Origin: an uncultured Gemmatimonadota bacterium
GTDB taxonomy: Bacteria; JAAXHH01
Direction of reading: 5' to 3'
Length of the DNA: 64,000 bases
Assembly (NCBI GenBank): GCA_951812955.1
Contig: OX638340.1
Coordinates: 640,001 to 704,000 of the forward strand
The notes under the pieces were generated by a model, which saw only the letters and a list, made by a program, of their open reading frames with translations, searched no databases and had not been told where the DNA came from. Below are positions 7,054 to 47,702 of the stretch, piece after piece (position 1 is the first letter of the stretch; the number at the start of each line of letters is the position of its first letter). The translations under genes and the position numbers were made by a program.

Positions 7054-8841
7054 ATGATAAGAAAACACCATTTTGCCGTCACTGCACTATGCCTGTGTCT
7101 CACCGGAAAAGCCGCGGGTTCGGATGTCGTTATATCGGAGGTCCTGGCCGATCCTCATACAGAATCAAAAGGCGAGTTTGTCGAACTCTACAACGCGGGA
7201 GACGAACCGGTTGATCTCGACGGATGGCCCCTCGGTGATTCAAGGGATGTGAACGATACGATCATGGACTTCACCGGCCCACATGACATCGGCCTCGCAG
7301 GTACCGTACTGGCGCCGGGTGCATACGCGCTCGTCGTGGATCCTGATTACGAAGGAGCATACAACGTCCGGGTCGGCGTGGAAGGCGATCCCGCGAGCCT
7401 CCTTATGCTGACGGTCAAGGGCGACCGTACCCTTGGCAATGGGCTCGGCAACAGCCAGGACCTGGTCTTCATAAAGAAAGACGATATCACGATCGACCAG
7501 TTCGCATGGACCGAATCGGCGGGCGGTAACGGCATCTCCTGGGAGCGGACGCGATTGGACTTGCCCGTGGATGCAGCCAATCTCTTGTCGTCCGAACATC
7601 CCGATGGTTCGACTCCGGGGTTCAGAAACAGCACGTCGAACGATCCGCCTGCCGCACCGGAGCCGGAGGAACCCGGGGAACCGATCGTTCCAGAAGAACC
7701 GCATGAACCTGGCGGACCGGAGGACCCCGCCGAACCGACGGAGCCGGAAACGCCCACCGGGCCTGTTGATCCCGCCGAACCGGACGAGCCTGTCGAGCCC
7801 GGGGAGCCCGACCAGCCTGCTGAACCGACGGAACCCGGGGTGCCCGGGGATCCGGACGAGCCTGTCGAGCCCGGTGAGCCCGACGAACCGAACGAGCCTG
7901 TCGAGCCCGACGAGCCTGCTGAACCGCAGGAGCCCATGGACCCCGAAAAAACCGACGGGCCGACGGAGCCGGAAACGCCCACCGGGCCCGTTGATCCGTC
8001 GGAACCGATGCCTCCTCAGAACGCCGACCGGTCCTTGGAAAACGTGTTTATCAATGAAATCATGTTCAACCCGGGTCCGAACCGAACAGAATGGATTGAA
8101 TTACACAACAGGGGAAGGACCGAGATTGATCTTGCCGGCAGTATGCTGAGGCTGGATCACGTTGACCGGACGCGGCTCATTTCCTCGGATCGCCTCGTGA
8201 TCGAAGGCCAGGGGTTTCTCGTCATTGCGCACGACGCGGTCCTGTTCCATGAGACGTATCCCGGATTCGCAGGAATCGCGGTGGAAGCGGTGGGCGGTTG
8301 GGAGCGACTCCGAAACAGCGGTGCAAGGTTGTTGCTCCTGGATGCAGGTGGCAAAACCATACACGATGCGGAGTACGACGAGGAATCAAATCCCGATCCA
8401 GGCCGTTCCGTGGAACTGGTAAACCCGGACTTCGAGCCACAGATCTGGGGGCCTTCTGCCGATCCCGAAGGGAGCACTCCGGGCCGGAGGAACGCGCTGA
8501 ATGTAACTCATATCCCCGACGGAGTTTCGCTCCACGTCGCCAACAATCCATTCTCCCCGGATGGCGACAATTATGAGGACATTTGCCTGGTGACTGTTGA
8601 ACTGCCCGCATCCCACGGCATTCTGCATGCCATGGTTTTCGATATCAGCGGTCGATTTCTCAAAACGCTCATTAATCAGACTGCCGTAGCCAGCCGGCAT
8701 GTATTCTCCTGGGACGGAACGGATCAACACGGACGCAGCCTGCCCGTCGGTCCGTACATTCTATACGTGGAACAGATGCTGCCCACACTCGACAGGCTGA
8801 CGGCTTCCAAGCACGTGGTTGTGATCGCATCTTCGCCATGA
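7054..8841 (+). CDS. Secreted/cell-surface protein. It has a signal peptide, two lamin-tail (LTD) domains separated by an acidic Pro/Glu-rich repeat linker, and a C-terminal FlgD-Ig/T9SS-like sorting domain.
   Basis: 595 aa. The N-terminal signal peptide is MIRKHHFAVTALCLCLTGKAAG. Two LTD-like blocks begin VVISEVLADPHT..GEFVELYN and VFINEIMFNPGP..EWIELHN. A roughly 120-aa segment is made of EPxEP/EPTEPETPTGPVDP repeats. The C-terminal beta-sandwich (ICLVTVELP...VFDISGRFLKTL...GPYILYVEQ) resembles FlgD-Ig/por-secretion tail domains. Confidence 0.6.
   Translation: MIRKHHFAVTALCLCLTGKAAGSDVVISEVLADPHTESKGEFVELYNAGDEPVDLDGWPLGDSRDVNDTIMDFTGPHDIGLAGTVLAPGAYALVVDPDYEGAYNVRVGVEGDPASLLMLTVKGDRTLGNGLGNSQDLVFIKKDDITIDQFAWTESAGGNGISWERTRLDLPVDAANLLSSEHPDGSTPGFRNSTSNDPPAAPEPEEPGEPIVPEEPHEPGGPEDPAEPTEPETPTGPVDPAEPDEPVEPGEPDQPAEPTEPGVPGDPDEPVEPGEPDEPNEPVEPDEPAEPQEPMDPEKTDGPTEPETPTGPVDPSEPMPPQNADRSLENVFINEIMFNPGPNRTEWIELHNRGRTEIDLAGSMLRLDHVDRTRLISSDRLVIEGQGFLVIAHDAVLFHETYPGFAGIAVEAVGGWERLRNSGARLLLLDAGGKTIHDAEYDEESNPDPGRSVELVNPDFEPQIWGPSADPEGSTPGRRNALNVTHIPDGVSLHVANNPFSPDGDNYEDICLVTVELPASHGILHAMVFDISGRFLKTLINQTAVASRHVFSWDGTDQHGRSLPVGPYILYVEQMLPTLDRLTASKHVVVIASSP
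7660..8010 (+). repeat. Intragenic tandem/duplicated DNA repeats encoding the acidic EP-rich linker of the LTD protein
   Basis: The sequence ccgacggagccggaaacgcccaccgggcc(t/c)gttgatcc occurs at about 7737 and about 7960. The sequence gacgagcctgtcgagccc(g/c)g(g/t)gagcccgac occurs at about 7786 and about 7856. Confidence 0.7.
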
Positions 8842-8957
8842 ACAGCCGGATATTCTACTTGACACGGGCTATCAGTGTCCCTTGATTTACAGTGGCTCCA
8901 CGCAAAAATGCTGCTGAACGCCAAGAGCTGAATCGGGTCGCGTACAGAGATAGCTAC

Positions 8958-9905
8958 ATGAACAATATCGTGGTTTTCAGCGGCTCTTCCCATCCTGCTC
9001 TTTCGGAAGAGGTATGCCACTGCCTGAACGTGCCGCTGAGAGCCAGTACCCTGACACGGTTCAGCAATGATTGCCTCCAGGTCCAGTTGAATGCGAACTG
9101 CCGCGAAGGTGATGTTTACATCATCCAGCCGCTGGGTCCCCCCGTGCAGGAAAACCTGGTTGAGCTGCTGTTGATGCTGGATGCCGCGCGCGGTGCGTCA
9201 GCGGCTCGCACCACCGCCGTCCTTCCTTATTACTCCTACTCGAGATCCGACAAGAAGGATGCGCCCCGAATTTCCATCGCTGGACGCCTGGTGGCCGATC
9301 TGCTGGGCACGGCTGGAGCCAATCGCATACTCACGCTGCAAATGCATCAACCGCAGGTACACGGTTTTTTCAGTATACCGGTGGATCATTTGAACGCGAT
9401 CAAAGTCCTTGCCCAACATTTCCAGCAGCGGGATCTGAGCAATACGGTCGTGGTGTCGCCGGACCTGGGTAACGCAAAGAACGCTGCCCATTTCGCGCGG
9501 CAACTGATGCTGCCGGTTGCGGCGGGCAACAAGCGCCGCATATCGGACGAAAAGGTCGTGATCGACATGATTGTGGGCGATGTTACCGGCAAAAACGCGA
9601 TCATCATGGACGATGAGGTCGCGACCGGCGGCAGCATCATCGAGCTGATCCAACGGCTGGAGGAACGCGACGTACAAAAGGTGTCCGTCGCATGTACACA
9701 CGGTGTGTTCAGCGGAAAGGCTATAGAGAGATTCGCAAACTGTTCCCGGATCGATGAGATTGTCACGACCAACACGGTTCCAATAGGCGAAGACAAGCGA
9801 CTTCCCAATATGGTGATTCTATCCGTCGCTTCATTATTGGCCGAGACGATTCGAAGAATCCATAACGGAGAATCGGTGAGCAGCCTGTTTGCCGATACGA
9901 TGTAG
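8958..9905 (+). CDS. prs: Ribose-phosphate pyrophosphokinase (PRPP synthetase)
   Basis: Has the PRPP-binding loop (DDEVATGGSIIELIQRL) and the N-terminal domain pattern (MNNIVVFSGSSHPALSEEV...). The ORF-track entry starts at an upstream GTG; the first ATG at 8958 matches the canonical Prs N-terminus. Confidence 0.9.
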   Translation: MNNIVVFSGSSHPALSEEVCHCLNVPLRASTLTRFSNDCLQVQLNANCREGDVYIIQPLGPPVQENLVELLLMLDAARGASAARTTAVLPYYSYSRSDKKDAPRISIAGRLVADLLGTAGANRILTLQMHQPQVHGFFSIPVDHLNAIKVLAQHFQQRDLSNTVVVSPDLGNAKNAAHFARQLMLPVAAGNKRRISDEKVVIDMIVGDVTGKNAIIMDDEVATGGSIIELIQRLEERDVQKVSVACTHGVFSGKAIERFANCSRIDEIVTTNTVPIGEDKRLPNMVILSVASLLAETIRRIHNGESVSSLFADTM

Positions 9906-11979: not shown

Positions 11980-12948
11980 TTACTTTCGATCCTTGAGACG
12001 GGTCCAGCCTCTACCCGGGTTATATGGCTTCGCTTCGTGAAAACGGTCTCGTAATTCCTTGAAAGCGTCGGGCGTTCTGACCTCCCGTTCGGGATGACTC
12101 GAATCCCTGATTACGAAGTCCGCCTCGCTCGGATAGCAGGCCATGGTTACCGGGTCCCGTTCCGGAGTATAGGATTCCGGATCCTCCTCCGCGTTATTCG
12201 GCGCATCCATGGACTGATATCTAAGGTCCACGCTCCAGCGTACGATATCGGACCGGTTCACGAAGGAGGCATGAGGCGTCAGATTAGTCATGAACAGGAC
12301 GTCGCCCAGTTTCATCTGCAAAGGTACGGGATCGCGCCCGGGCAATTCGTCGGCCGGGATTTCCAGGTAGCCGCCGTGCCCACCGGTGTAATGTTTGAAT
12401 ACACCATTTTCATGGGCGCGCGGAATCACGTACAGACAGCCGTTTTCTACCGTCGTATCAACCAGCGGGATCCAACAGGTCACGATAAGGTACCGGTCGC
12501 AGTGGGGCAGGAAATAACCCGAGTCCTGGTGCCAGGGTACTTCCGTTCTCGTGTATTCCGGGATCTTCGGACGAATTCTGTACGCGGAAGCGCCCACGAT
12601 GTCCGGCCCGACCAGGTCGTTAACACAATCTACCAGGTTGTCGTTCCGCAACAGACCGAGCATCTCTTCCCCGCTGAATCCGCCCCCTCCCCGTCCCATG
12701 ATCATCTTCATGATCTCCTGCCCGGCTTCTTCGGATTCTTCGTATACACGCGCGAGACGGGTCTCGAATCCTGATGCTTCGTACAGATCGGACAACTTTC
12801 CTTCGCGGTGCAGACGGTGCGCTCCGTCTGCCACTATTTCGCCCAACGCGGCAATCAACGGCCGCAGTTCATCCCGCTCCAGCAGTCCTTCTTTGACCAG
12901 ATATCCCTGCGTGTTGAAATGTGCGATTTCCGTTTGTGCAAGTCCCAT
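11980..12948 (-). CDS. Phytanoyl-CoA dioxygenase (PhyH) family Fe(II)/2OG oxygenase (second copy)
   Basis: 322 aa. Has the HxD motif in VPWHQDSGYF, the distal His in LTPHASFVNRSD and an Arg in a VRWSVDLRYQ-like 2OG-binding context. Confidence 0.7.
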   Translation of the reverse strand: MGLAQTEIAHFNTQGYLVKEGLLERDELRPLIAALGEIVADGAHRLHREGKLSDLYEASGFETRLARVYEESEEAGQEIMKMIMGRGGGGFSGEEMLGLLRNDNLVDCVNDLVGPDIVGASAYRIRPKIPEYTRTEVPWHQDSGYFLPHCDRYLIVTCWIPLVDTTVENGCLYVIPRAHENGVFKHYTGGHGGYLEIPADELPGRDPVPLQMKLGDVLFMTNLTPHASFVNRSDIVRWSVDLRYQSMDAPNNAEEDPESYTPERDPVTMACYPSEADFVIRDSSHPEREVRTPDAFKELRDRFHEAKPYNPGRGWTRLKDRK

Positions 12949-13025
12949 GGTGCCTCTCGCTTCTCAAATGTACAGCGCGCGGTGCGCCAGGAAACCCGTC
13001 CGGCGGCTTACTGGCGTACCGAGCT

Positions 13026-14786
13026 TCAGATTCGCATCAGGTCAGAAACGTCCAATTCAGTTCTGGGCTGGTAGGGTTTGAGAAAACGCATGATCTCTTC
13101 CGACGTGGGCAGGTCCAGGGCTTCGCGGGTTATGGTCTTGAGCTCCTCATAGTCCGCCGAACGGATAAGGCTCTTGATCTCGGGGATATCGATCGGACTC
13201 ATTGAAAGCTCGTCAACGCCTAAACCCAACAGTATGCAGGCTGCAAGCGGATGAGCCGCCATGGCGCCGCAGACACCTACCCAGATATCGTTGTCGTGTG
13301 CGGCATCGATAATCGATGCGACCAGGCGGAGAACCGCCGGGTGGCATGGATTATACAGGGAGGCGATGCTCGGATTGCCCCGATCGGCCGCTACCGTGTA
13401 CTGGATCAGGTCGTTCGTGCCGATGCTGAAAAAGTCCACTTCCTTCGCCAGATCCTGGGCCGTCAGCGCGGCCGAAGGGATTTCGACCATGATCCCGATC
13501 GACATCGATTGATCGACAGGCACACCCGCCTCCAGCAACTCGTCCCTCGCTTCGTTAAAAAGTACCTTTGCCCTTCGGAGTTCATTTAATCCGGATATCA
13601 TTGGAAACATCAGACTTACGTTACCCTCTACACTGGCCCTCAGGATGGCTCGTAACTGTACCTTGAACATTTCCGGCCGATCAAGGCAGAGCCGGATGCC
13701 CCGTTGTCCAAGGGCGGGATTGGCTTCGTCAGGCATCTGTTTGGGCATCTTGTCCGCACCGAGATCCAGCGTGCGTATAATCACGGCATGCGGGGCCATG
13801 CGCTGGGCGATTTTCAGATAAGTCCGGGTCTGTTCATCTTCGGAAGGCAATTCGTTACCCACCAGGTACAGGAATTCGGTACGATACAGGCCGATCCCGT
13901 CCGCACCGTGATTCAAGACGTCTTCCAATTCAGCCGGCAGCTCGATATTGGCCGAAAGCTCGATGCGCCTGCCGTCCCGCGTCTCTGCCGGCAGGTCATG
14001 GAGCTCCTGCAGTTCATGCTCCAAAACTGATAACTGGGATTTCGTTTCCCTGTACCGGCTGATCGTTTCCGGATCCGGATCGAGATGGACCAGCCCGCTG
14101 TTGCCGTCGATAATGATCGTCATTCCGTCTGAAATTTCCTGCGTGGCGATGTTCGCGCCTACCACCGCCGGCACGGCCAGACCGCGGGCGACGATCGCCG
14201 TATGGGACGTCTGGCCTCCGGCGTCGGTGATGAAGCCGCACACCGCGTCGCGATCGATTTCCGCGGTGTCCGAAGGGGACAGGCTGTGGGCTACGAGCAC
14301 AGTCTCTCCCTTCATGTTCTCGATCTCCGTGTGCGCGCTACCCGTGAGCTTGGCCAACACCCGGTAGTGAACGTCTTCGAAATCTGCGGTCCGTTCTCGG
14401 AAGAATGGATTCGCAATGGAGGAGTAGCTGGCAATCCATCCTCGCATCACATCGTCGAAAACATACTCCGCGTTGGCCTTCTCCCGACGAATACGCACGA
14501 TGGTGACATCGACGACCTCCGGATCTTCAAGCACGGCCTGGTGGGTACGGAAGATCTTCAGGATGTCCTGGTCGATATCTACCGCGATGCGGCGCTGCAG
14601 TTGGGTCAGGTCGTCCAGGGCCTCATCGACCGCGGTCTTGAAGCGCTTGATTTCCGCTTCAACTTTGTCAGAGGAAATCTGACGCTGGTGAATGGCGGCG
14701 AAGCGGCGATTGTAAACTAAAGCGCGGCCGATGGCTATGCCTGGTGATGCCGGAATGCCTTTCAGCACGCGGTGCTCATCGCTCAT
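13026..14786 (-). CDS. ptsI: Phosphoenolpyruvate-protein phosphotransferase (PTS enzyme I)
   Basis: 586 aa. Has the active-site His region (GGQTSHTAIVARGLAVPAVVG) and the PEP-utilising TIM-barrel C-terminal domain. Confidence 0.9.
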   Translation of the reverse strand: MSDEHRVLKGIPASPGIAIGRALVYNRRFAAIHQRQISSDKVEAEIKRFKTAVDEALDDLTQLQRRIAVDIDQDILKIFRTHQAVLEDPEVVDVTIVRIRREKANAEYVFDDVMRGWIASYSSIANPFFRERTADFEDVHYRVLAKLTGSAHTEIENMKGETVLVAHSLSPSDTAEIDRDAVCGFITDAGGQTSHTAIVARGLAVPAVVGANIATQEISDGMTIIIDGNSGLVHLDPDPETISRYRETKSQLSVLEHELQELHDLPAETRDGRRIELSANIELPAELEDVLNHGADGIGLYRTEFLYLVGNELPSEDEQTRTYLKIAQRMAPHAVIIRTLDLGADKMPKQMPDEANPALGQRGIRLCLDRPEMFKVQLRAILRASVEGNVSLMFPMISGLNELRRAKVLFNEARDELLEAGVPVDQSMSIGIMVEIPSAALTAQDLAKEVDFFSIGTNDLIQYTVAADRGNPSIASLYNPCHPAVLRLVASIIDAAHDNDIWVGVCGAMAAHPLAACILLGLGVDELSMSPIDIPEIKSLIRSADYEELKTITREALDLPTSEEIMRFLKPYQPRTELDVSDLMRI

Positions 14787-39097: not shown

Positions 39098-39135
39098 GGG
39101 CGTACCGTCATCAAGGGCGTACCGTCATCAAGGGC
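39098..39135 (+). repeat. Tandem 17-bp direct repeat (gggcgtaccgtcatcaa x2 plus a partial third copy) about 40-75 nt upstream of the sulfatase start
   Basis: Seen directly: gggcgtaccgtcatcaagggcgtaccgtcatcaagggc. Confidence 0.75.
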
Positions 39136-39174
39136 ATACCCCCAGTAACGACGCGAAGAAGGAGTAGATGTAAA

Positions 39175-40577
39175 TTGCATAGCGAAAAACCCAACATCCT
39201 CTTTTTGTTTTCAGATGACCAGCGCTTCGATACGGTGAATTCGCTTGGAAATCCAGGCGTGCATACGCCGTCGATGGATCGGCTTGCGGCACGGGGGACG
39301 GCCTTCACGCACGCGCACATTCCCGGAGGCACGTCCGCCGCGATATGCATGCCGAGCCGTGCCATGCTGCACACCGGGCGCACGCTGTTTCACCTGGACG
39401 GCGCGGGCGAGGACATACCTCGGGACCATGTGCTCATGGGCGAGCATCTGAAAAGTTGCGGATACCGCACCTGGGGCACGGGCAAATGGCACAACGGCGT
39501 CTCGGCTTTCGCACGCAGCTTTTCTGATGGGGCCGAGATATTCTTCGGAGGTATGGACGACCACTGGAACGTGCCCGTCTTCGACTATGATCCGCAAGGC
39601 CGGTATGAAGGGACGTTACCGCAGTGTCCCGACGCGTTTCATTCCAATGCGTTGAAAGTCCGGCGCGGGGACCGCGTGTCGGCGGGAAGGCATTCCAGCG
39701 AGTTGTTCGGCGAATGCGCCGCGGACTGGCTGGAGAGCTACGAAGGCACCGATCCATTTTTCATGTACGTGTCCTTCATGGCGCCCCACGATCCCCGGAC
39801 CGTGCCACAGGCGTACCTGGACCTGTACGATCCGGAACAGATCCCGCTTCCCGGCAATTTCCAGGGCGGCCATCCCTTCGACAACGGCGATCTCAAAGTC
39901 AGGGATGAAGTGTTGGAAGATTTTCCGCGCGACCCGTTTAAAGTACGCCGGCACATCGCCGAATACTACGGAATGATCACCCACCTGGACGCCCAGATGG
40001 GCCGAATCCTGGACGTGCTGGACACCCGGGGCATGACGGACAATACGATCGTGGTCTTTGCCGGCGACAACGGATTGGCCGTGGGGCAGCACGGACTGTT
40101 CGGCAAACAGAACATGTACGAACACAGCGTGCGGATTCCCCTTATGTTCGCCGGACCGGGAATACCCCGGGGGTTTGCCGATCTTCCTACGCTTACCTGC
40201 TGGACATCTTCCCGACGCTGTGCGAACTGGCCGGCATCGATACACCCGAATCCGTCGAAGGAACGAGTCTGGCCTCCGCCATGGCGGATCCCGGCGTGCG
40301 ACCCCGGACATCCCTGTATGCCGCGTACCAACAGTGGCAACGCATGGTCAAGGATGCCCGGTTCAAACTGATCGAATACGTCGTCGACGGCCGTCGAACG
40401 ACCCAGTTGTTCGACCTGGAACGCGATCCGTCGGAGTGTCGCAACCTGGCCGGCGATCCGTCCGAACAGGACCGGCTGCGAGCACTCAGGGACCTGCTTT
40501 TTCAATGGCGCGACGACTGGGACGATGCCCGGAGTCCATGGGGCAAGGCCTTCTGGGACGGTTACGACGCCCATTGA
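39175..40577 (+). pseudogene. Cys-type sulfatase (arylsulfatase family, CxPxR) with an internal +1 frameshift near 40165-40190. This is either a pseudogene or a homopolymer sequencing error. There is no signal peptide.
   Basis: The N-terminal part (39175-40371) has the FGly motif CMPSRAMLHTGR and the FSDDQRFD metal-binding start. The C-terminal part continues in another frame (40281..40577, from ...AYLLDIFPTLCELAGIDTPESVEGTSL...). The frame switch maps to a C4/G5 run (ataccccgggggtttgcc). The apparent start is a TTG, preceded by an ATG-TAA start-stop and a GAAGGAG Shine-Dalgarno. Confidence 0.7.
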
Positions 40578-40609: not shown

Positions 40610-42346
40610 TCAGGCGACGGCCGTCCGGTTCCTGGCAATCCGGTACAGTATCTGGCTCATGGCGCCAAGTCCCAATATGACCAGCAACCCGTTGACAACC
40701 CAGCCGACATAGGGCAGGCTGACCGCGACCAGCACCAGTACCAGTCCAACAGACAACGCCAAAGCCACCGAACGCATGTCCTGCCGCTTCGATCGCAACA
40801 GTGCGGTGCCCAGATAGTGCGCCACGACGATCTTGGACAGGTAAAGTCCCACCGCCCATATAACCACCGTGACCAATCCTACTGGAATACCGATGAGTGT
40901 CACGGCAAACACCGCCGCTGCGACCGGCAGGGTAATGAGGATAACAACCCCGGTGCCGGCGGACACGAGTATCGACCTGAAATCTTCCAGCGGCTGGATT
41001 CTGAAAGCGGGTAGTGCCCAGAACACCAACATGCCCGATATGAATGCCGCGGCCAGCCACAAGACCGAAAACAGGAGCGACCAGAACGACCAGGACGACC
41101 AGAACGACCCGGCCTCCTCCTGGCGCTCTTCGTAAACGTCGATACTTGTCGTGCCCGCCACAGATGAGACGGAGTCCACCAGCAGGTCTTCCTCACTCGG
41201 CAATTCCACGTCGAGGTTGCCGCCGATCGATGCGGACGACTGAATGGCCGCAACACGCCCCGAGAAGGTTACATCCCGCAATACCTTGCCCGATACGGTA
41301 AGCCTGTTGCCGAACACCGTCACATTGCGGCCTACCGAACCGCCCACGTTGATCTGGTCGGCGAAAGCAAAAAGATCGCCTCCGATAGCGGCGTCCCGTC
41401 TCGTTAGAATGGACTTGCCGAACCAGTATACGCTTTGTCCGACCGTATTTCCCATGCGAATCATCTCTCCGAATGCCCCGACTCCGCCTTCGACCTTGCC
41501 TTCAATCTCTATGATCTGCCCGAAAAAGAACGCGTCTCCGTGCACCGAGCCCTGGATATCGATCGATTCCGCGAAGGCGATCAGGTCTCCGGTTACCACC
41601 CCGTCAATACGCACGGTACGACCGAAGGCAACGAAGGTGTCATCGATGACTTCATTGGCTTCAATCGACACACTCTCGCCGGATTTGATCTCGATGGCTT
41701 TCGCCGGCGTGGCTGCTATGAATGCCAGAATCAGGGTGCCAAGTATCACCGGCAACCCAGAGGACCTTTGAAAACTCGCATAAATCAAATAGACAAGCGT
41801 GCCGAGAAGGGCGGTGATTCCGGCGGTTATCATCAGGGATTCCATGATCGATCCTCCTTCGCGAATTAAATAGACACATGAGCTGAACAGCAGGGACAGC
41901 TGACCGGAAACCTGGAGCGGATTGAGCCAGGCCAGTCCCCAGGGCAGCTGAAGTCCGGTAACCAGGTCGAACCCCATCCTCAACAAAAGCGCGGTTCCGA
42001 TGACCAGTCCCATGAGTTGCAGGACCAGTGCCGGGGAAGAGGCCGGGACAGGCACATGAGACGAGGCCGGGACAGGCACATGAGATGAGGCCGGGACAGG
42101 TAACGGAGATGAGGCCGGGACAGGTAACGGCTCAGATTCAGCCAGGAACGCATCTGCGTTACCGATAAACCCGACGAGCGTTTCTCTTTCCACCTGGAAC
42201 GCAAGGACCAGTTCACGGCAACGGGGACAGCGGTCCAGATGTTCGCGCAACAGCTTGGCTTCGGATACGGACAACTCGCCATCGGCGTACATCGCGCAGG
42301 TCAGTTCGGCCGGACAGGACTTGCTACGCACACCTGTATCGGTCAT
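40610..42346 (-). CDS. Membrane anti-sigma factor with four parts: N-terminal zf-HC2 zinc finger, TM segments, a bactofilin-like (polymer-forming beta-helix) domain, and a C-terminal polytopic membrane domain
   Basis: 578 aa. The zf-HC2 motif is CPAELTCAMYADGELSVSEAKLLREHLDRCPRCR. A repetitive beta-helix region (GRTVRIDGVVTGDLIAFAESIDIQGSVHGDAFFFGQIIEIEGKVEGGVGAFGEMIRMGNTVG...) resembles bactofilin/CcmA. Several hydrophobic helices lie before and after it. The gene is translationally coupled (ATGA) to the upstream ECF sigma gene. Confidence 0.6.
   Translation of the reverse strand: MTDTGVRSKSCPAELTCAMYADGELSVSEAKLLREHLDRCPRCRELVLAFQVERETLVGFIGNADAFLAESEPLPVPASSPLPVPASSHVPVPASSHVPVPASSPALVLQLMGLVIGTALLLRMGFDLVTGLQLPWGLAWLNPLQVSGQLSLLFSSCVYLIREGGSIMESLMITAGITALLGTLVYLIYASFQRSSGLPVILGTLILAFIAATPAKAIEIKSGESVSIEANEVIDDTFVAFGRTVRIDGVVTGDLIAFAESIDIQGSVHGDAFFFGQIIEIEGKVEGGVGAFGEMIRMGNTVGQSVYWFGKSILTRRDAAIGGDLFAFADQINVGGSVGRNVTVFGNRLTVSGKVLRDVTFSGRVAAIQSSASIGGNLDVELPSEEDLLVDSVSSVAGTTSIDVYEERQEEAGSFWSSWSFWSLLFSVLWLAAAFISGMLVFWALPAFRIQPLEDFRSILVSAGTGVVILITLPVAAAVFAVTLIGIPVGLVTVVIWAVGLYLSKIVVAHYLGTALLRSKRQDMRSVALALSVGLVLVLVAVSLPYVGWVVNGLLVILGLGAMSQILYRIARNRTAVA
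42039..42134 (-). repeat. Four tandem 24-bp repeats encoding (P/H)(L/V)PVPASS x4 in the anti-sigma factor linker
   Basis: Plus strand: gaggccgggacaggcacatgaga(c/t) x2, then gaggccgggacaggtaacgg(agat/ctca) x2. Confidence 0.8.
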
Positions 42347-42849
42347 AATTCGGCCAGCTCCTTTCTCAATTGCTGCTTGGCGCGGAATAGCAGCGTCGCT
42401 ACCGTATTTCGTTTCAGCCCGAGGGCATTTCCGATTTCGTCGTAGGTAAACTGGTTATAGTAAGCCAGTATGAGCGGCACGCGGTACTTCTCAGGTAGCG
42501 ATTGGACGGCGGACCGCACGCTTTCCCCCTTTTCCGCCTGCACAAGATATTCGAGCGTATCCTCGGACACCCTGGACGGTCCGATCCGATCGAAGCCTGC
42601 GGTTTCGAAGATCCTGGTCTCCGAACTGCTACGCCGCAATCGGTCAAGACAGTGATTGGTCGCTATTTTAAGCAGCCAGTTCAGGCATGACTTCGAGTGA
42701 TCAATCGTCGAACGCTTCTCGTAGGCGCGGACGAAAACTTCATGGGTCGCGTCCTCGGCCTCGTCGGCTGACTTCAACAGATACCTGCAAAGCGCGAGAA
42801 TCCGCCGGGAGTGCTTCCGGTAGCTCTCGTCGAAGTCGTAATCCATCAT
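42343..42849 (-). CDS. ECF-type RNA polymerase sigma factor (sigma-70 regions 2 and 4)
   Basis: Has region 2 (ILALCRYLLKSADEAEDATHEVFVRAY) and region 4 (PEKYRVPLILAYYNQFTYDEIGNALGLKRNTVATLLFRAKQQLRK). The Met at 42849 (MMDYDFDESYRKH...) is preferred over the upstream Met at 42918. Confidence 0.8.
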   Translation of the reverse strand: MMDYDFDESYRKHSRRILALCRYLLKSADEAEDATHEVFVRAYEKRSTIDHSKSCLNWLLKIATNHCLDRLRRSSSETRIFETAGFDRIGPSRVSEDTLEYLVQAEKGESVRSAVQSLPEKYRVPLILAYYNQFTYDEIGNALGLKRNTVATLLFRAKQQLRKELAEL

Positions 42850-43108
42850 GGAGGGATTTCCAGCATTCGAATTCACGTCTCTACTACGGATAACCGGACG
42901 AAATAGTTTCATTTCCATGTCCGAAAGGACTGGTACGCCGGCGGCACCGGTGGAATCGAGACATTACAGGTGGGGACCGGACGGGCCGGTGTTGCGCGTT
43001 ACTGCTGATCAGGCAGGGGAGTGGAAGGGAATAAACCGGGTTACAAAAACACATCGTCAGGCCAGGGGAGCCTGGACGTGCAAATACCCTTCAATTACCG
43101 GCTGTTCC

Positions 43109-46009: not shown

Positions 46010-47702
46010 CGGCACCGCCCGTGGTACGATCGGCCTGGCGATCGGCCTGAGGATCGGCCTGGCGATCCGCCGCTTGCCGACAGAGGATCTCGAACTCTTC
46101 CGGGAAATGCCGGCGGGCGGAGGTAAGCGGAAGTGCCGCAGCCTGGCCGAGCCCGCATATGGACGATAGCTCCATCGCTTCTGCAACATCCTTTACGGGT
46201 GCCAGCATGTCGGGCCGCCCGTTGCCTTCAAGTACCTTTTCCAATAGCTGAACGAGATGCTCCGTACCGGTCCGGCAGGGCACGCACTTTCCGCAGGATT
46301 CGTTGCGAAAGAACGTTACCGCGTTCAAGGCTAGATCCACCATGTTTGTGCCCTCGGCCAGAACGATGACCGCACCGGACCCCAGCATGGACCCGGCGTC
46401 CGCGAGGGGCTTGAAGTCAAGCGGGATATCCGCCATGGAAGCTGGAAGGAAACCCGACGACGTGCCTCCCGGAGAAAAGGCCTTCAGCTTGCGACCGTCG
46501 GAAACGCCGCCCCCCTCGTTATCAATGAGATCGCGAACCCGCGTTCCGAGGGGGATTTCGTACACGCCGGGCCGGTTGACATGCCCGCTGAGGGCGATGT
46601 ACTTGCGTCCCGCCGCGCCGTTTATCCCCTGGCTTCTGAACCATTCGGCGCCGCGACGCAAAATGGCGGGCACCCAGGCGAACGTCTCCACATTGTTGAT
46701 GAGCGTGGGCCTGCCGTGTAGCCCGTGCGTACCCGGGAACGGCGGCTTGTTCCGGGGTTCTGCACGTTTGCCTTCCATTGCTTCCAGCAGAGCCGTCTCC
46801 TCGCCGCAGATATAACCGCCCGGACTGTCGAAGATCTCAAGGTGAAACGAATGTTCCGAATTGAACACGCCGTCGCCCAGGTATCCCGCGGAGTAGAACG
46901 CCCTGATGGTCTTCTCCAGCACTTCCCGTTCCCGTTCGTATTCATGGCGAAGGTAAAGGTATCCCTGATTTGCCCCGACCACGAGACCACCCAGGATCAG
47001 CCCTTCGACGACGAGATGGGGATAGTGGTACAGGATCTCGCGGTCCTTGAACGTGCCGGGTTCGCTCTCGTCCGCATTGCAGATCGCGTACTTGTCCTCG
47101 GATTCGGCCTTTCGGACCAGATCCCACTTCACCCCCGTCGGGAACCCGGCTCCGCCCATGCCGCACAGCCCGCTGTCCTTGATTACCTGCAGAATCCGGT
47201 CCGAGTTGCCGTCCGAAACCCACGCTTTTAACGATTCGGCGGCCAGTGGATGGCCATAGGGATCAATAAGCCCGGGGCTGGCACGCCGCCGGGTGGGCTG
47301 CCGGGCGACCCTTCCGTCCTCGGCCAACCGGGCGACGAAATTGCTAAGACGGTCCGGTGACATGGAACGGTAACTGAGATCGTTGATCGAGACCGCCGGC
47401 GCCCCATCGCACTGTCCAAGGCAGGAAACTCCGGTTACCTCCCAGTTTTCAAGCCCGGCATAATCCACGGTTTCCCGCAGGGTCTCCAGCAGGTCACAGG
47501 CGCCGTGGAGGTGGCACGTGAGGTCGGTACAGACGCGCAGCGTAGCCACCGGGGGAGGCTCAAGTCTGAAGTGAGGGTAGAAGCTGGCCACGCCATGGGC
47601 TTCGTAGAGGGGAATGCCCTTCCGCTCCGACAGGGATTTCAGTTCATCTTCAGGCAGATAGCCGTGGCGCGCCTGTATCTCCTTCAGATCATCTATCAGC
47701 AT
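45999..47702 (-). CDS. NAD(H)-binding diaphorase subunit. It is a fusion of a NuoE-like 2Fe-2S thioredoxin-fold domain with a NuoF-like FMN/NAD/4Fe-4S domain (FdsG+FdsB / HoxF-like).
   Basis: 567 aa. The NuoE-like N-terminus is MLIDDLKEIQARHGYLPEDELKSL...CTDLTCHLHGACDLLE...GVSCLGQCDGAPA. The NuoF-like core has GLCGMGGAGFPTGVKW and the ESCGKCVPCR 4Fe-4S motif. The C-terminal tail is low-complexity (QADR)n. It overlaps the alpha-subunit start by 11 nt. Confidence 0.8.
   Translation of the reverse strand: MLIDDLKEIQARHGYLPEDELKSLSERKGIPLYEAHGVASFYPHFRLEPPPVATLRVCTDLTCHLHGACDLLETLRETVDYAGLENWEVTGVSCLGQCDGAPAVSINDLSYRSMSPDRLSNFVARLAEDGRVARQPTRRRASPGLIDPYGHPLAAESLKAWVSDGNSDRILQVIKDSGLCGMGGAGFPTGVKWDLVRKAESEDKYAICNADESEPGTFKDREILYHYPHLVVEGLILGGLVVGANQGYLYLRHEYEREREVLEKTIRAFYSAGYLGDGVFNSEHSFHLEIFDSPGGYICGEETALLEAMEGKRAEPRNKPPFPGTHGLHGRPTLINNVETFAWVPAILRRGAEWFRSQGINGAAGRKYIALSGHVNRPGVYEIPLGTRVRDLIDNEGGGVSDGRKLKAFSPGGTSSGFLPASMADIPLDFKPLADAGSMLGSGAVIVLAEGTNMVDLALNAVTFFRNESCGKCVPCRTGTEHLVQLLEKVLEGNGRPDMLAPVKDVAEAMELSSICGLGQAAALPLTSARRHFPEEFEILCRQAADRQADPQADRQADRTTGGADAQ
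46025..46075 (-). repeat. 12-bp tandem repeats (gatcggcctg g/a c/g x4) encoding the QADRQADPQADRQADR tail of the diaphorase subunit. They overlap the RBS region of the alpha subunit.
   Basis: Seen directly: cgatcggcctggcgatcggcctgaggatcggcctggcgatccgc. Confidence 0.7.

Follow-up and report, generated by a model that had tools for sequence, protein, structure and literature searches.

A predicted ECF sigma/anti-sigma gene pair whose membrane anti-sigma factor carries a HalB-like, bactofilin-related module

Introduction

Pairs of ECF sigma and anti-sigma factors are the commonest route by which bacteria sense the state of their envelope, and most of these pairs have no established input domain or signal. 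Within the 64-kb stretch of DNA analyzed here (the window), an ECF sigma gene overlaps the gene for a long, polytopic anti-sigma factor, and the question that this locus raises is what such a protein could report, and from which side of the membrane. The domain proposed below as its input comes from a very large and almost unstudied family, of which the only characterized look-alike is the archaeal protein HalB.

Results

An ECF sigma gene with a predicted autoregulated promoter. By its domain content, the sigma ORF is an ECF (group IV) sigma-70 factor made up of sigma-2 and sigma-4 only. Sigma70_r2 (54.9 bits) and Sigma70_r4_2 (52.6 bits) were both detected, and the same Pfam scan gave no match to region 3 or region 1.1. 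The ORF scores above the cut-off of the ECF superfamily model TIGR02937 (86.4 bits versus 42.9) and falls below every NCBIfam subfamily cut-off, the closest being TIGR02985 (108.6 versus 126.4). The original prediction of an ECF sigma factor coupled through an ATGA to a zf-HC2 anti-sigma factor was borne out: both ORFs and their overlap lie at the predicted positions (Table 1), and the Sigma70_r2, Sigma70_r4_2, TIGR02937, and zf-HC2 models all pass.

Table 1. Features of the sigma/anti-sigma locus, in window positions
Feature	Position	Strand	Extent and basis
Anti-sigma ORF	40610-42346	-	578 aa + stop
Five-helix TM tail	40613-41089	-	Residues ~420-578; AF2
Second small repeat, (SFW/SSW)n, 9-bp units	41072-41109	-	TRF period 9, 3.6 copies
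Low-confidence segment after beta-helix	41072-41137	-	Residues ~404-425; pLDDT 57-69 (AF2)
Bactofilin-like right-handed beta-helix	41138-41695	-	Residues 218-403; ~10 windings of 17 residues; predicted periplasmic
Signal-peptide-like segment	41696-41773	-	Residues 192-217; alignment with stand-alone homologues
Fusion-specific N-terminal membrane region	41774-42034	-	TM1, residues 105-127; loop, 128-167; TM3, 168-191; hydropathy
Pro-rich linker	42035-42130	-	Residues 73-104; four 24-bp/8-aa units
Class I zinc-binding anti-sigma domain, cytoplasmic (predicted)	42137-42325	-	Residues ~8-70; predicted ligands C11, H36, C40, C43
ATGA overlap, sigma stop/anti-sigma start	42343-42346	-	Read from sequence
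ECF (group IV) sigma ORF as called	42343-42918	-	191 codons
Sigma-4 domain	~42367-42522	-	Pfam
Sigma-2 domain	~42625-42822	-	Pfam
ECF-type promoter TGAAAC-N17-CGTA	42885-42911	-	-35 TGAAAC, 42911-42906; -10 CGTA, 42888-42885

The predicted promoter falls inside codons 1 to 11 of the sigma ORF as mechanically called and is the single match to TGAAAC-N17-CGTA in the window (0.14 expected). It resembles the Bacillus subtilis sigma-W consensus, which we take to be TGAAAC-N16-CGTA. Of 25 related loci, 23 have a G[AT]AA[CT]-N16/17-CGTA element upstream of their sigma gene (background, 0.013 per region), and in distant loci (L026, L001, L025, and L027) in-frame stops separate it from the body of the sigma gene, so that it is non-coding there. 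Because the first 11 called codons hold this conserved ECF-type promoter, the true sigma start is probably downstream of the called one, at the GTG of codon 15 (42876-42874) or at the ATG of codon 24 (42849); at codon 15, some relatives have ATG and others GTG. The sequence thus contains the two features by which an ECF group is recognized, namely, a predicted autoregulated ECF-type promoter 5' of the sigma gene and an anti-sigma gene 3' of it.

An AAGGAG Shine-Dalgarno-like sequence lies 11 nt upstream of the ATGA overlap. The two genes overlap by the same 4 bp in one relative (L001) and by 17 nt in another (L003), and a sigma gene stands directly upstream of the anti-sigma gene in 27 of 29 loci, including loci from Terriglobia, Acidobacteria, and Gammaproteobacteria (the genome scan used an alignment of 11 closer sequences). 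Among the loci compared, conservation beyond the close clade was seen for no other neighboring gene. Housekeeping genes flank the pair in the window; they are conserved within that clade only, and thus no functional partner emerged; no protease gene was linked to the locus. An ABC transporter link suggested by L001 and L003 was rejected, as the transporter is near the pair in only three of seven distant loci.

A zinc-binding anti-sigma domain at the N terminus. The N-terminal zinc finger of the original prediction passes the Pfam cut-off for zf-HC2 (PF13490, residues 20 to 44; 30.3 bits versus 22.2), and the ligands of its C11-x24-H36-x3-C40-x2-C43 motif are conserved in 41/43 to 46/46 homologues. 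The family profile matches RsiW (5wuq, 2.4e-5), RslA (3hug, 9.4e-5), DdvA (8rlz), and ChrR. The domain is modeled as four helices (pLDDT 90 to 95, AF2), for which Foldseek returned local matches to ChrR, RslA, and RsiW with probabilities of 0.96 to 1.0. By motif and modeled fold, the N terminus belongs with the class I zinc-binding anti-sigma domains (ZAS).

Membrane segments and predicted topology. Where about three TM helices had been expected after the beta-helix, hydropathy and AF2 gave five, in addition to three hydrophobic helices before it, and eight TM helices are predicted for the whole anti-sigma protein. The N-terminal membrane region, which is specific to the fusion, is poorly modeled (pLDDT 43 to 65, AF2) and carries a conserved motif, P..WL.P....G.....F....Y...EG. 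Its loop is conserved and net acidic (net charge -2.15), with an amphipathic helix. A weakly hydrophobic helix at residues 147 to 162 could alter the helix count; parity with the cytoplasmic anti-sigma domain and the positively charged loop speak against such a change.

The fourth hydrophobic segment of the fusion falls exactly where stand-alone relatives of the C-terminal part of the protein have a cleavable-type signal peptide. It has a positively charged n-region (R194), a 15-residue h-region (L198 to A212), and a c-region, T-P-A-K-A, whose last residue is A217, followed by I218. Its AxA site is conserved, with A, G, S, or V at -3 in 42 of 46 sequences, A or G at -1 in 42 of 46, and Pro at -4 in 26 of 46. 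The loop that precedes it has 2.26 K/R and 0 D/E. Conservation of the AxA might alternatively reflect descent from a signal peptide, or capping of the beta-helix by the residues that follow.

The tail helices were modeled by AF2 with pLDDT 80 to 94 at residues 421 to 444, 456 to 482, 484 to 517, 524 to 542, and 548 to 577, with a short helix at 446 to 449 (model numbering, +1). The protein has a precomputed match to PF26514 (DUF8173), and the matched region is probably this tail. Alternate tail loops and the C terminus are positively charged, and the C terminus is probably cytoplasmic. The net charge of the beta-helix is -11.7, and together with the tail loops and the positive loop before the signal-like segment, it follows the positive-inside rule with the beta-helix outside. 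Because the segment preceding it resembles a signal peptide and keeps the AxA, the beta-helix is probably periplasmic and would report on the envelope rather than on the cytoskeleton.

A HalB-like module shared with a large stand-alone family. Residues ~192 to 578 align end to end with stand-alone proteins that consist of a signal peptide, a beta-helix, and a five-TM DUF8173 tail. A profile search found 22,034 representative clusters of this family at E<=1e-3, of which 8,984 reach E<=1e-30, with many Dehalococcoidia among them. Full-length homologues of the anti-sigma factor were found in 131 clusters. Kinship between fused and stand-alone forms was judged by best-hit analysis, a neighbor-joining tree of the module being too crude to address monophyly of the fusions, and the four apparent stand-alone proteins nearest the fusions look like truncated gene calls.

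The domain combination is visible in databases as PF13490+PF26514(+PF04519), as "zf-HC2 domain-containing protein" (NCBI), and as "anti-sigma factor RsiW/cytoskeletal protein CcmA" (JGI); over 100 clusters (90% identity) contain it, and it recurs in several phyla. The original prediction had allowed that the architecture might already be a commonly annotated one, and this holds in part, as regards automated annotation and number of clusters, but no descriptive paper was found: searches of the literature on anti-sigma factors, bactofilins, DUF8173, and halofilin yielded no account of an anti-sigma/bactofilin-like/DUF8173 fusion.

The characterized look-alike, HalB (HVO_1237) of Haloferax volcanii, is described as a cell-shape factor and forms filaments only in cells stripped of their S-layer; its bactofilin domain was shown with HaloTag to be extracellular, and its homologues, with up to 10 windings, are mostly bacterial, especially from Chloroflexota (PMC11459167). 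The likeness lies in the published layout of a signal or signal-like segment, a beta-helix, an unstructured segment, and five TM helices plus a short helix, ending in a cytoplasmic C terminus. As predictions, all of these elements recur here: the signal-like segment (internal in the fusion) is followed by an extracytoplasmic beta-helix, and AF2 gives low confidence at residues 405 to 420 before the five long helices and the short one. Unlike HalB, the module is preceded by ~190 residues (anti-sigma domain, Pro-rich tether, and two TM helices) and is paired with an ECF sigma gene, a fusion of a kind that the HalB paper does not describe (PMC11459167); HalB, moreover, is not described as a signaling protein, in contrast to the role proposed below. 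A homology search with the module profile gave no haloarchaeal match, and the best 150 hits of an exhaustive profile search included no acidic proteins of haloarchaeal type. A tblastn search of plasmids for haloarchaeal HalB returned one weak match, to Acaryochloris. A "Bathyarchaeota" member (P0122) was considered as an archaeal route to HalB and dismissed, its relatives being Dehalococcoidia.

Relationship of the beta-helix to bactofilins. The beta-helix is modeled with high confidence (pLDDT 95 to 98 over residues 218 to 404, AF2), and the autocorrelation of its sequence has maxima at lags of 17 and 34 residues, giving the right-handed beta-helix with ~17-residue windings that characterizes bactofilins. 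The window protein scores 19.0 bits against Bactofilin PF04519 (E 0.0017) and does not reach the gathering cut-off of 27.9. Among orthologues, 43/46 match PF04519 at E<=0.01 and ~18/46 at E<=3.6e-6, the latter value being our own estimate of the equivalent of the Pfam cut-off, and the anti-sigma family profile matches BacA (2n3d) with E 4.4e-4. The bactofilin-like segment that had been proposed is thus upheld as a confident beta-helix with a family-level link to PF04519, but the window protein itself misses the Pfam cut-off, and these profile matches support relatedness to bactofilins at the family level only. That the domain is instead a generic right-handed beta-helix of the adhesin or pectate lyase type, unrelated to bactofilins, and that the Pfam match is an artifact of low complexity, seems to us most improbable.

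Comparison with known anti-sigma factors and bactofilins. In its H-x3-C-x2-C domain, with profile and fold matches, and in the position of its gene directly downstream of and overlapping an ECF sigma gene with a predicted autoregulated promoter, the system resembles RsiW/SigW (B. subtilis), RslA/SigL (Mycobacterium tuberculosis), and ChrR/SigE (Rhodobacter sphaeroides). However, RsiW and RslA each span the membrane with a single helix and ChrR, which has a cupin domain, is soluble, whereas eight TM helices and a ~190-residue beta-helical domain, predicted to be extracytoplasmic, are found here. As in RsiV/SigV (B. subtilis), a predicted signal peptidase-type AxA site stands at the boundary of membrane and periplasm; by sequence it fits recognition by signal peptidase I, and it lies where a TM segment would emerge on the extracytoplasmic side. 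RsiV reportedly undergoes site-1 cleavage by signal peptidase. The RsiV sensor is unrelated, as it binds lysozyme through a DUF4179-type domain, and RsiV has a single TM helix, whereas the AxA of the fusion, where cleavage is purely hypothetical, comes after an internal third membrane pass. The Pfam and NCBIfam matches of the window proteins included no RsiV-type family, and RsiV is therefore an analogy of mechanism and not of membership.

Canonical bactofilins are small cytoplasmic proteins with ~6 windings and disordered Pro-rich tails that polymerize end to end. The beta-helix described here shares with them (BacA of Caulobacter crescentus, 2n3d; TtBac, 6ria; PF04519) the 17-residue winding and a family-level similarity of sequence, but it has ~10 windings, is flanked by membrane anchors on either side, and is probably periplasmic.

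A working model and its alternatives. Taken together, we favor, with a probability of roughly 0.6, the reading that the locus is a self-contained, autoregulated two-gene ECF unit in which a membrane anti-sigma factor bears a HalB-like module as its input. In the working model, (i) the anti-sigma domain, by homology, would retain the sigma factor on the cytoplasmic side of the membrane; (ii) the variable Pro-rich tether and two TM helices would join this domain to the rest of the protein; (iii) with the domain and tether cytoplasmic, TM1 would lead out, the acidic loop would be periplasmic, and TM3 would lead back in; (iv) the signal-like segment would lead out again to the ~10-winding periplasmic beta-helix, and the five TM helices would return the C terminus to the cytoplasm; and (v) the periplasmic beta-helix and membrane domain would serve as the input. 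If the envelope changes state, or if the beta-helix alters its self-association, the anti-sigma factor may be inactivated; the sigma factor thereby freed would transcribe its own operon and a regulon. The most concrete route of inactivation, although speculative, would be regulated proteolysis, with a cut at the AxA (A217|I218), as in RsiV, followed by intramembrane cleavage. A more specific form of the model, in which the beta-helix assembles or comes apart with envelope mechanics or structure and the signal passes through the DUF8173 domain to release the sigma factor, is an idea that we hold as doubtful.

Alternatives differ in which part of the protein senses, and on which side of the membrane. 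The original prediction placed a polymer-forming bactofilin domain in the cytoplasm, where the anti-sigma factor would read the state of the cytoskeleton. The family-level homology to PF04519 and BacA agrees with this, as do the cytoplasmic location and Pro-rich tails of canonical bactofilins, but a cytoskeletal input is very unlikely, given that the stretch leading into the beta-helix lines up with signal peptides of the cleavable type and keeps the AxA, that the strongly positive loop before it, the acidic beta-helix, and the charges of the tail loops all fit an outside location, and that the bactofilin domain of HalB, whose architecture matches, is extracellular by experiment (PMC11459167). 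It is also unlikely, if less so, that the zinc domain is the sensor, responding like RsrA or RslA to oxidation of its thiols or to loss of zinc, with the HalB-like module a mere anchor or localizer. The complete, conserved C-x24-H-x3-C-x2-C motif would suit such a sensor, RslA (a profile match) is a zinc-associated anti-sigma factor, and there is a weak, subthreshold match to the RsrA model TIGR03988 (20.3 bits versus 62.5). Many zinc-binding anti-sigma domains, however, including those of RsiW and ChrR, are not known to be redox sensors. Furthermore, the anti-sigma domain is no more strongly conserved than the ~385 residues of beta-helix and tail, with a mean pairwise identity of 0.38 to 0.40 in all three across phyla, and a mere anchoring role makes this equal conservation hard to explain.

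The AxA site lends itself to a further reading, in which the gene encodes a polyprotein that signal peptidase I cuts constitutively at A217|I218 into a three-TM anti-sigma factor and a mature HalB-like protein, the fusion serving for coexpression. The n/h/c organization of the segment, the length of its h-region, the Pro at -4, the small residues at -3 and -1, and the alignment with genuine signal peptides are what this reading would lead one to expect. Yet internal signal-like helices in polytopic bacterial proteins are seldom known to be cleaved, the fusion has stayed in one piece in several phyla and nothing points to a split of its halves into separate genes, and the nearest apparent stand-alone proteins seem to be miscalled rather than separate; we consider a polyprotein quite improbable.

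What the fusion may offer. For the favored reading of a HalB-like module as the input of an ECF unit, its occurrence in nature fused to an anti-sigma domain is an argument that the module is capable of sensing envelope state, and a defined promoter and sigma factor provide an easy read-out for what HalB-like modules respond to. If assembly of the beta-helix is indeed the input, this would be the first signaling pathway with an extracytoplasmic bactofilin-type polymer as its input and would give the first functional handle on ~22,000 clusters of uncharacterized bacterial HalB-like proteins. In practical terms, the limits are that every genome found to carry the fusion is an uncultured MAG and that the architecture already shows in the automated annotation noted above.

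Two small repeats in the anti-sigma gene. The Pro-rich linker has pLDDT below 50 (AF2), i.e., it is modeled as disordered, and would be a cytoplasmic tether between the anti-sigma domain and TM1. It had been read as (PLPVPASS)x4 encoded by perfect 24-bp repeats; the units are in fact PLPVPASS x2 and HVPVPASS x2, and two of the four have diverged (units 1 and 2 match base for base, unit 3 shows 5 base differences from unit 1, and unit 4 shows 2 from unit 3; TRF period 24, 4.1 copies, 88 to 91% matches). The expectation that the linker is a site of length variation held, since relatives at 86 to 91% identity carry 1, 2, 3, or 4 units of 8 aa. The SFW/SSW repeat varies as well, with three units in P0001 to P0004 and P0006 and two in other close relatives.

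ECF sigma factor and anti-sigma factor

The locus encodes a real pair of ECF sigma and anti-sigma factors; the proposed sensor module of the latter is HalB-like, unusual, and conserved across phyla. The sigma product contained only the Pfam domains Sigma70_r2 and Sigma70_r4_2. Against TIGR02937, the model for the ECF superfamily, it scored 86.4 bits (cut-off, 42.9), and it reached none of the subfamily cut-offs in the same comparison. The anti-sigma factor passed zf-HC2 over residues 20 to 44 (30.3 bits versus 22.2), and its N-terminal domain belongs to the class I zinc-binding anti-sigma domains. At its N terminus, a profile built from 46 diverse homologues (alignment A1) matched RsiW (5wuq, 2.4e-5), RslA (3hug, 9.4e-5), DdvA (8rlz, 2.5e-4), and ChrR; RsiW, RslA, and ChrR were also alike in fold, as local Foldseek matches with probabilities of 0.96 to 1.0. 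The domain was modeled with pLDDT values of 90 to 95, and the zinc ligands C11-x24-H36-x3-C40-x2-C43 were kept in 41/43, 45/46, 45/46, and 46/46 members, respectively. From this homology and the gene pairing, the domain would be expected to bind the sigma factor. The architecture originally predicted was largely right, but the repeat, the strength of the bactofilin match, and the number of helices needed correction.

Coordinates of features in the window
Feature	Position	Strand	Description
Sigma ORF as called	42343-42918	minus	191 codons
Anti-sigma ORF	40610-42346	minus	578 codons; ATGA overlap with sigma ORF
Putative promoter element	42885-42911		TGAAAC-N17-CGTA
Second repeat, (SFW/SSW)n	41072-41109	minus	9-bp units, just before first tail helix, predicted periplasmic side
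Sulfatase ORF 1	39175-40371	plus	Sulfatase domain up to residue 331
Sulfatase ORF 2	40281-40577	plus	SGSH_C C-terminal domain
Tandem repeat	39098-39140		17-bp unit, 2.5 copies, 96% matches
Tandem repeat	46027-46071		12-bp unit, 3.8 copies
Tandem repeat cluster	7761-7934		imperfect 9/27/36-bp units, 67-71% matches

Full-length homologues formed 131 clusters at 90% identity. They are named "zf-HC2 domain-containing protein" at NCBI (in Gemmatimonadota, Zixibacteria, Vicinamibacterales, Pseudomonadales, and Pseudomonadota) and [quoted passage not shown] at JGI. The Pfam hits precomputed for them comprise PF13490 and PF26514 (DUF8173) and often PF04519 as well. Pairing of the two genes is conserved: a sigma gene lay directly upstream in 27 of 29 loci, and the paired loci included those of Terriglobia, Acidobacteria, and Gammaproteobacteria, with anti-sigma identities of 28 to 35%.

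Putative promoter element and start of the sigma gene

When sequences upstream of the sigma gene were compared among related loci, a conserved putative promoter element emerged; in its window form, it had a single match across the 64 kb (0.14 expected). Of 25 upstream regions, 23 contained a relaxed form, G[AT]AA[CT]-N16/17-CGTA, the background rate of which was 0.013 per region; gammaproteobacterial loci carried the variant GTAAT-N16-CGTA. The sigma-W consensus of B. subtilis, TGAAAC-N16-CGTA, is the classic ECF consensus, which we take the window element to match, and this match implies autoregulation of the sigma gene through the putative promoter. In four loci (L026, L001, L025, and L027), in-frame stops separated the element from the sigma body, so the element is noncoding there; in the window clade the reading frame between them was open. 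Since sigma codon 15 was either GTG or ATG among relatives and lay about 8 nt past the −10 element, the sequences suggest that sigma translation starts at GTG 42876, in which case the transcript would be nearly leaderless, or else at ATG 42849.

The beta-helix and its relationship to bactofilins

AlphaFold2 with A1 gave a mean pLDDT of 79.5 for the window anti-sigma factor and modeled residues 218 to 404 as a beta-helix with pLDDT values of 95 to 98 (model numbering is protein numbering minus 1). Sequence autocorrelation peaked at 17 and 34 residues, which gives about 10 windings; Deng et al. reported windings of the same length, 17 residues, in bactofilins. The match of the window protein itself to Pfam Bactofilin (PF04519) was subthreshold (19.0 bits versus 27.9; E = 0.0017). 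At the family level, PF04519 was matched by 43 of 46 orthologues at E≤0.01 (best E, 7.8e-11) and by 18 of 46 at E≤3.6e-6, the estimated equivalent of its gathering score. Searched against the PDB, the family profile matched BacA (2n3d) at 4.4e-4 and TtBac (6ria) at 0.33 and matched no other beta-helix family. A generic beta-helix is judged the less likely reading. For the bactofilin-like domain first proposed, support came from the beta-helix and from matches at the family level; the window protein alone falls below the Pfam cut-off.

Stand-alone homologues and HalB

The C-terminal two thirds of the window protein is homologous to signal-peptide-bearing stand-alone proteins. Homologues without the anti-sigma domain (P0110, P0111, P0113, P0114, P0116, and P0118 among them) consist of an N-terminal signal peptide, a beta-helix, and a polytopic tail and align end to end with residues 192 to 578; P0118 reads ...ALASVKA/IEIKSGESV where the window protein reads ...AATPAKA(217)/IEIKSGESV. 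An exhaustive profile search returned 22,034 representative clusters at E≤1e-3, 15,735 at 1e-10, and 8,984 at 1e-30, of which the weaker matches may include other bactofilin-domain proteins. Only two of the best 150 matches carried the N-terminal extension, and so, judged from sequence, the anti-sigma fusion is a minority derivative of the module family. In a best-hit analysis with the module alone, the closest relative was another fusion for 43 of 48 fusions, and the four "stand-alones" that came nearest to fusions are apparently gene calls that were cut short. A single origin of the fusions is consistent with the sequences.

Halofilin B (HalB) of Haloferax volcanii was described by Curtis et al. 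(PMC11459167) as a signal peptide, an extracellular bactofilin domain (up to 10 windings), and an unstructured segment, followed by five TM helices and a short extra helix; HaloTag experiments established its topology, and most of its homologues come from bacteria (PMC11459167). The predicted layout of the module in the window protein agrees with that published description. Anti-sigma fusions are mentioned neither by Curtis et al. nor in the other literature searched. The architecture is present in automated annotation without a description in that literature, and it belongs to a class of system that is already known.

Among bacteria, Chloroflexota have the most HalB homologues (PMC11459167), and the close relatives of the stand-alone protein P0122 agree circumstantially with this: they are 66 to 97% identical, and those with an organism name are Dehalococcoidia. 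P0122 is labeled "Candidatus Bathyarchaeota archaeon" despite these relatives, so the archaeal label may reflect mis-binning.

A stand-alone module gene is also present in the cultured myxobacterium Enhygromyxa salina SWB005 (locus L028, about 7990-9152), with no sigma gene directly upstream. The protein has a signal peptide (MLRSS...AAAHA/ADLRK), then a beta-helix, the start of which is close to that of the fusions (ADEVIDDTLIAFG), and then the tail. Just before the gene is a small ORF that contains two motifs of the CxxCH haem-binding type. This organism may be tractable for studies of the module.

Predicted membrane topology and proposed signaling

Charges were counted by region across A1. 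The five-residue loop before the signal-peptide-like segment averaged 2.26 K/R and 0 D/E, and net charge was −11.7 for the beta-helix region and −2.15 for the loop at 128 to 167. In the tail, positive charge lay at loops 5/6 and 7/8 and at the C terminus; loops 6/7 and 8/9 were very short and uncharged. Together with a cytoplasmic anti-sigma domain, this pattern gives a predicted path in which TM1 leads out, the acidic loop is periplasmic, TM3 leads in, the signal-peptide-like segment leads out, the beta-helix is periplasmic, and five helices follow it, leaving the C terminus inside. The N-terminal membrane region was poorly modeled (pLDDT, 43 to 65). Several TM helices do follow the beta-helix, as anticipated, but there are five in the tail rather than about three. 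Residues 192 to 217 carry the signal-peptidase I pattern, with a hydrophobic core of 15 residues, Pro at −4 in 26/46 members, and a small residue at −3 and at −1, each in 42/46.

In the mechanism that we propose, the anti-sigma domain would sequester the sigma factor, and the periplasmic beta-helix and DUF8173 domain would provide the input. The sigma factor would then be released when the envelope changes or the beta-helix alters its state of assembly, and once free it would transcribe its own operon. By analogy with RsiV, proteolysis at the AxA site might, speculatively, be the first step, although descent alone may explain why this site is conserved. Constitutive cleavage of the anti-sigma factor into two proteins would also fit the signal-peptidase I pattern, but it is less likely, as the fusion has stayed intact in several phyla. 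The original prediction allowed that the protein reports cytoskeletal state. A cytoplasmic, cytoskeletal beta-helix would suit the bactofilin relationship, but the module is most likely exposed to the periplasm, which makes that reading probably wrong. The conserved zinc ligands would suit a domain that senses redox, with the rest of the protein a passive anchor; the beta-helix and tail, however, match the anti-sigma domain in degree of conservation across phyla, and we consider redox sensing the less likely account.

Repeats within the anti-sigma gene

The Pro-rich linker (residues 73 to 104) is encoded by four 24-bp units. The first two are identical, the third departs from them at five bases, and the fourth departs from the third at two, so that neither the perfect 24-bp repeats nor the (PLPVPASS)x4 peptide originally described was borne out: the peptide is PLPVPASS x2 plus HVPVPASS x2. 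The linker did prove to vary in length, as suggested, with 1, 2, 3, or 4 copies of the 8-aa unit in relatives of 86 to 91% identity; in more distant relatives, this position is taken by other Pro/Ala-rich repeats, e.g., PDPAWTPS x3. With the linker on the cytoplasmic side, variation in copy number would alter the length of the tether that joins the sigma-binding domain to the membrane. The second repeat, (SFW/SSW)n, runs to 3 units in the window protein and in four of its close relatives and to 2 units in the remaining ones.

Genomic neighborhood

Neighbors in the window include an NAD-linked formate-dehydrogenase-like pair, a sulfatase, a YgjP-like peptidase, Ile-tRNA synthetase, and pyruvate kinase. 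The housekeeping neighbors were syntenic only within a close clade (L006 to L024, MAGs labeled Latescibacterota or Gemmatimonadetes), in which neighbors were 66 to 93% identical to those of the window, sigma factors 64 to 73%, and anti-sigma factors 48 to 57%; the pair therefore evolves faster than its surroundings. A link to ABC transporters, suggested by loci L001 and L003, was rejected because only 3 of 7 distant loci had them close to the pair. In the Pseudomonadales locus L001, a second ECF sigma gene lies 4.6 kb downstream of the homologous pair, and after it come an ORF of 166 aa and a DUF4097 protein, which belongs to a different family; this segment (12246-13653) is another sigma unit.

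The sulfatase gene (39175-40577), convergent with the anti-sigma gene, consists of two overlapping ORFs in different frames, and alignments with relatives extend over only about 333 residues of the first. This indicates a frameshift, from a sequencing or assembly error or in a pseudogene. The 17-bp tandem repeat lies immediately before the sulfatase start codon, in the short intergenic region. The 12-bp repeat lies where the NuoF-like ORF (C-terminal ...ADRQADPQADRQADR...) overlaps a long N-terminal extension of the FdhA-like ORF (...RPILRPIARPIVPR...); the FdhA-like protein probably starts at a downstream Met (MRSDSVTLTLDG...). The imperfect repeats of the cluster at 7761-7934 would encode a Pro/Asp/Glu-rich stretch if they are in a coding frame.
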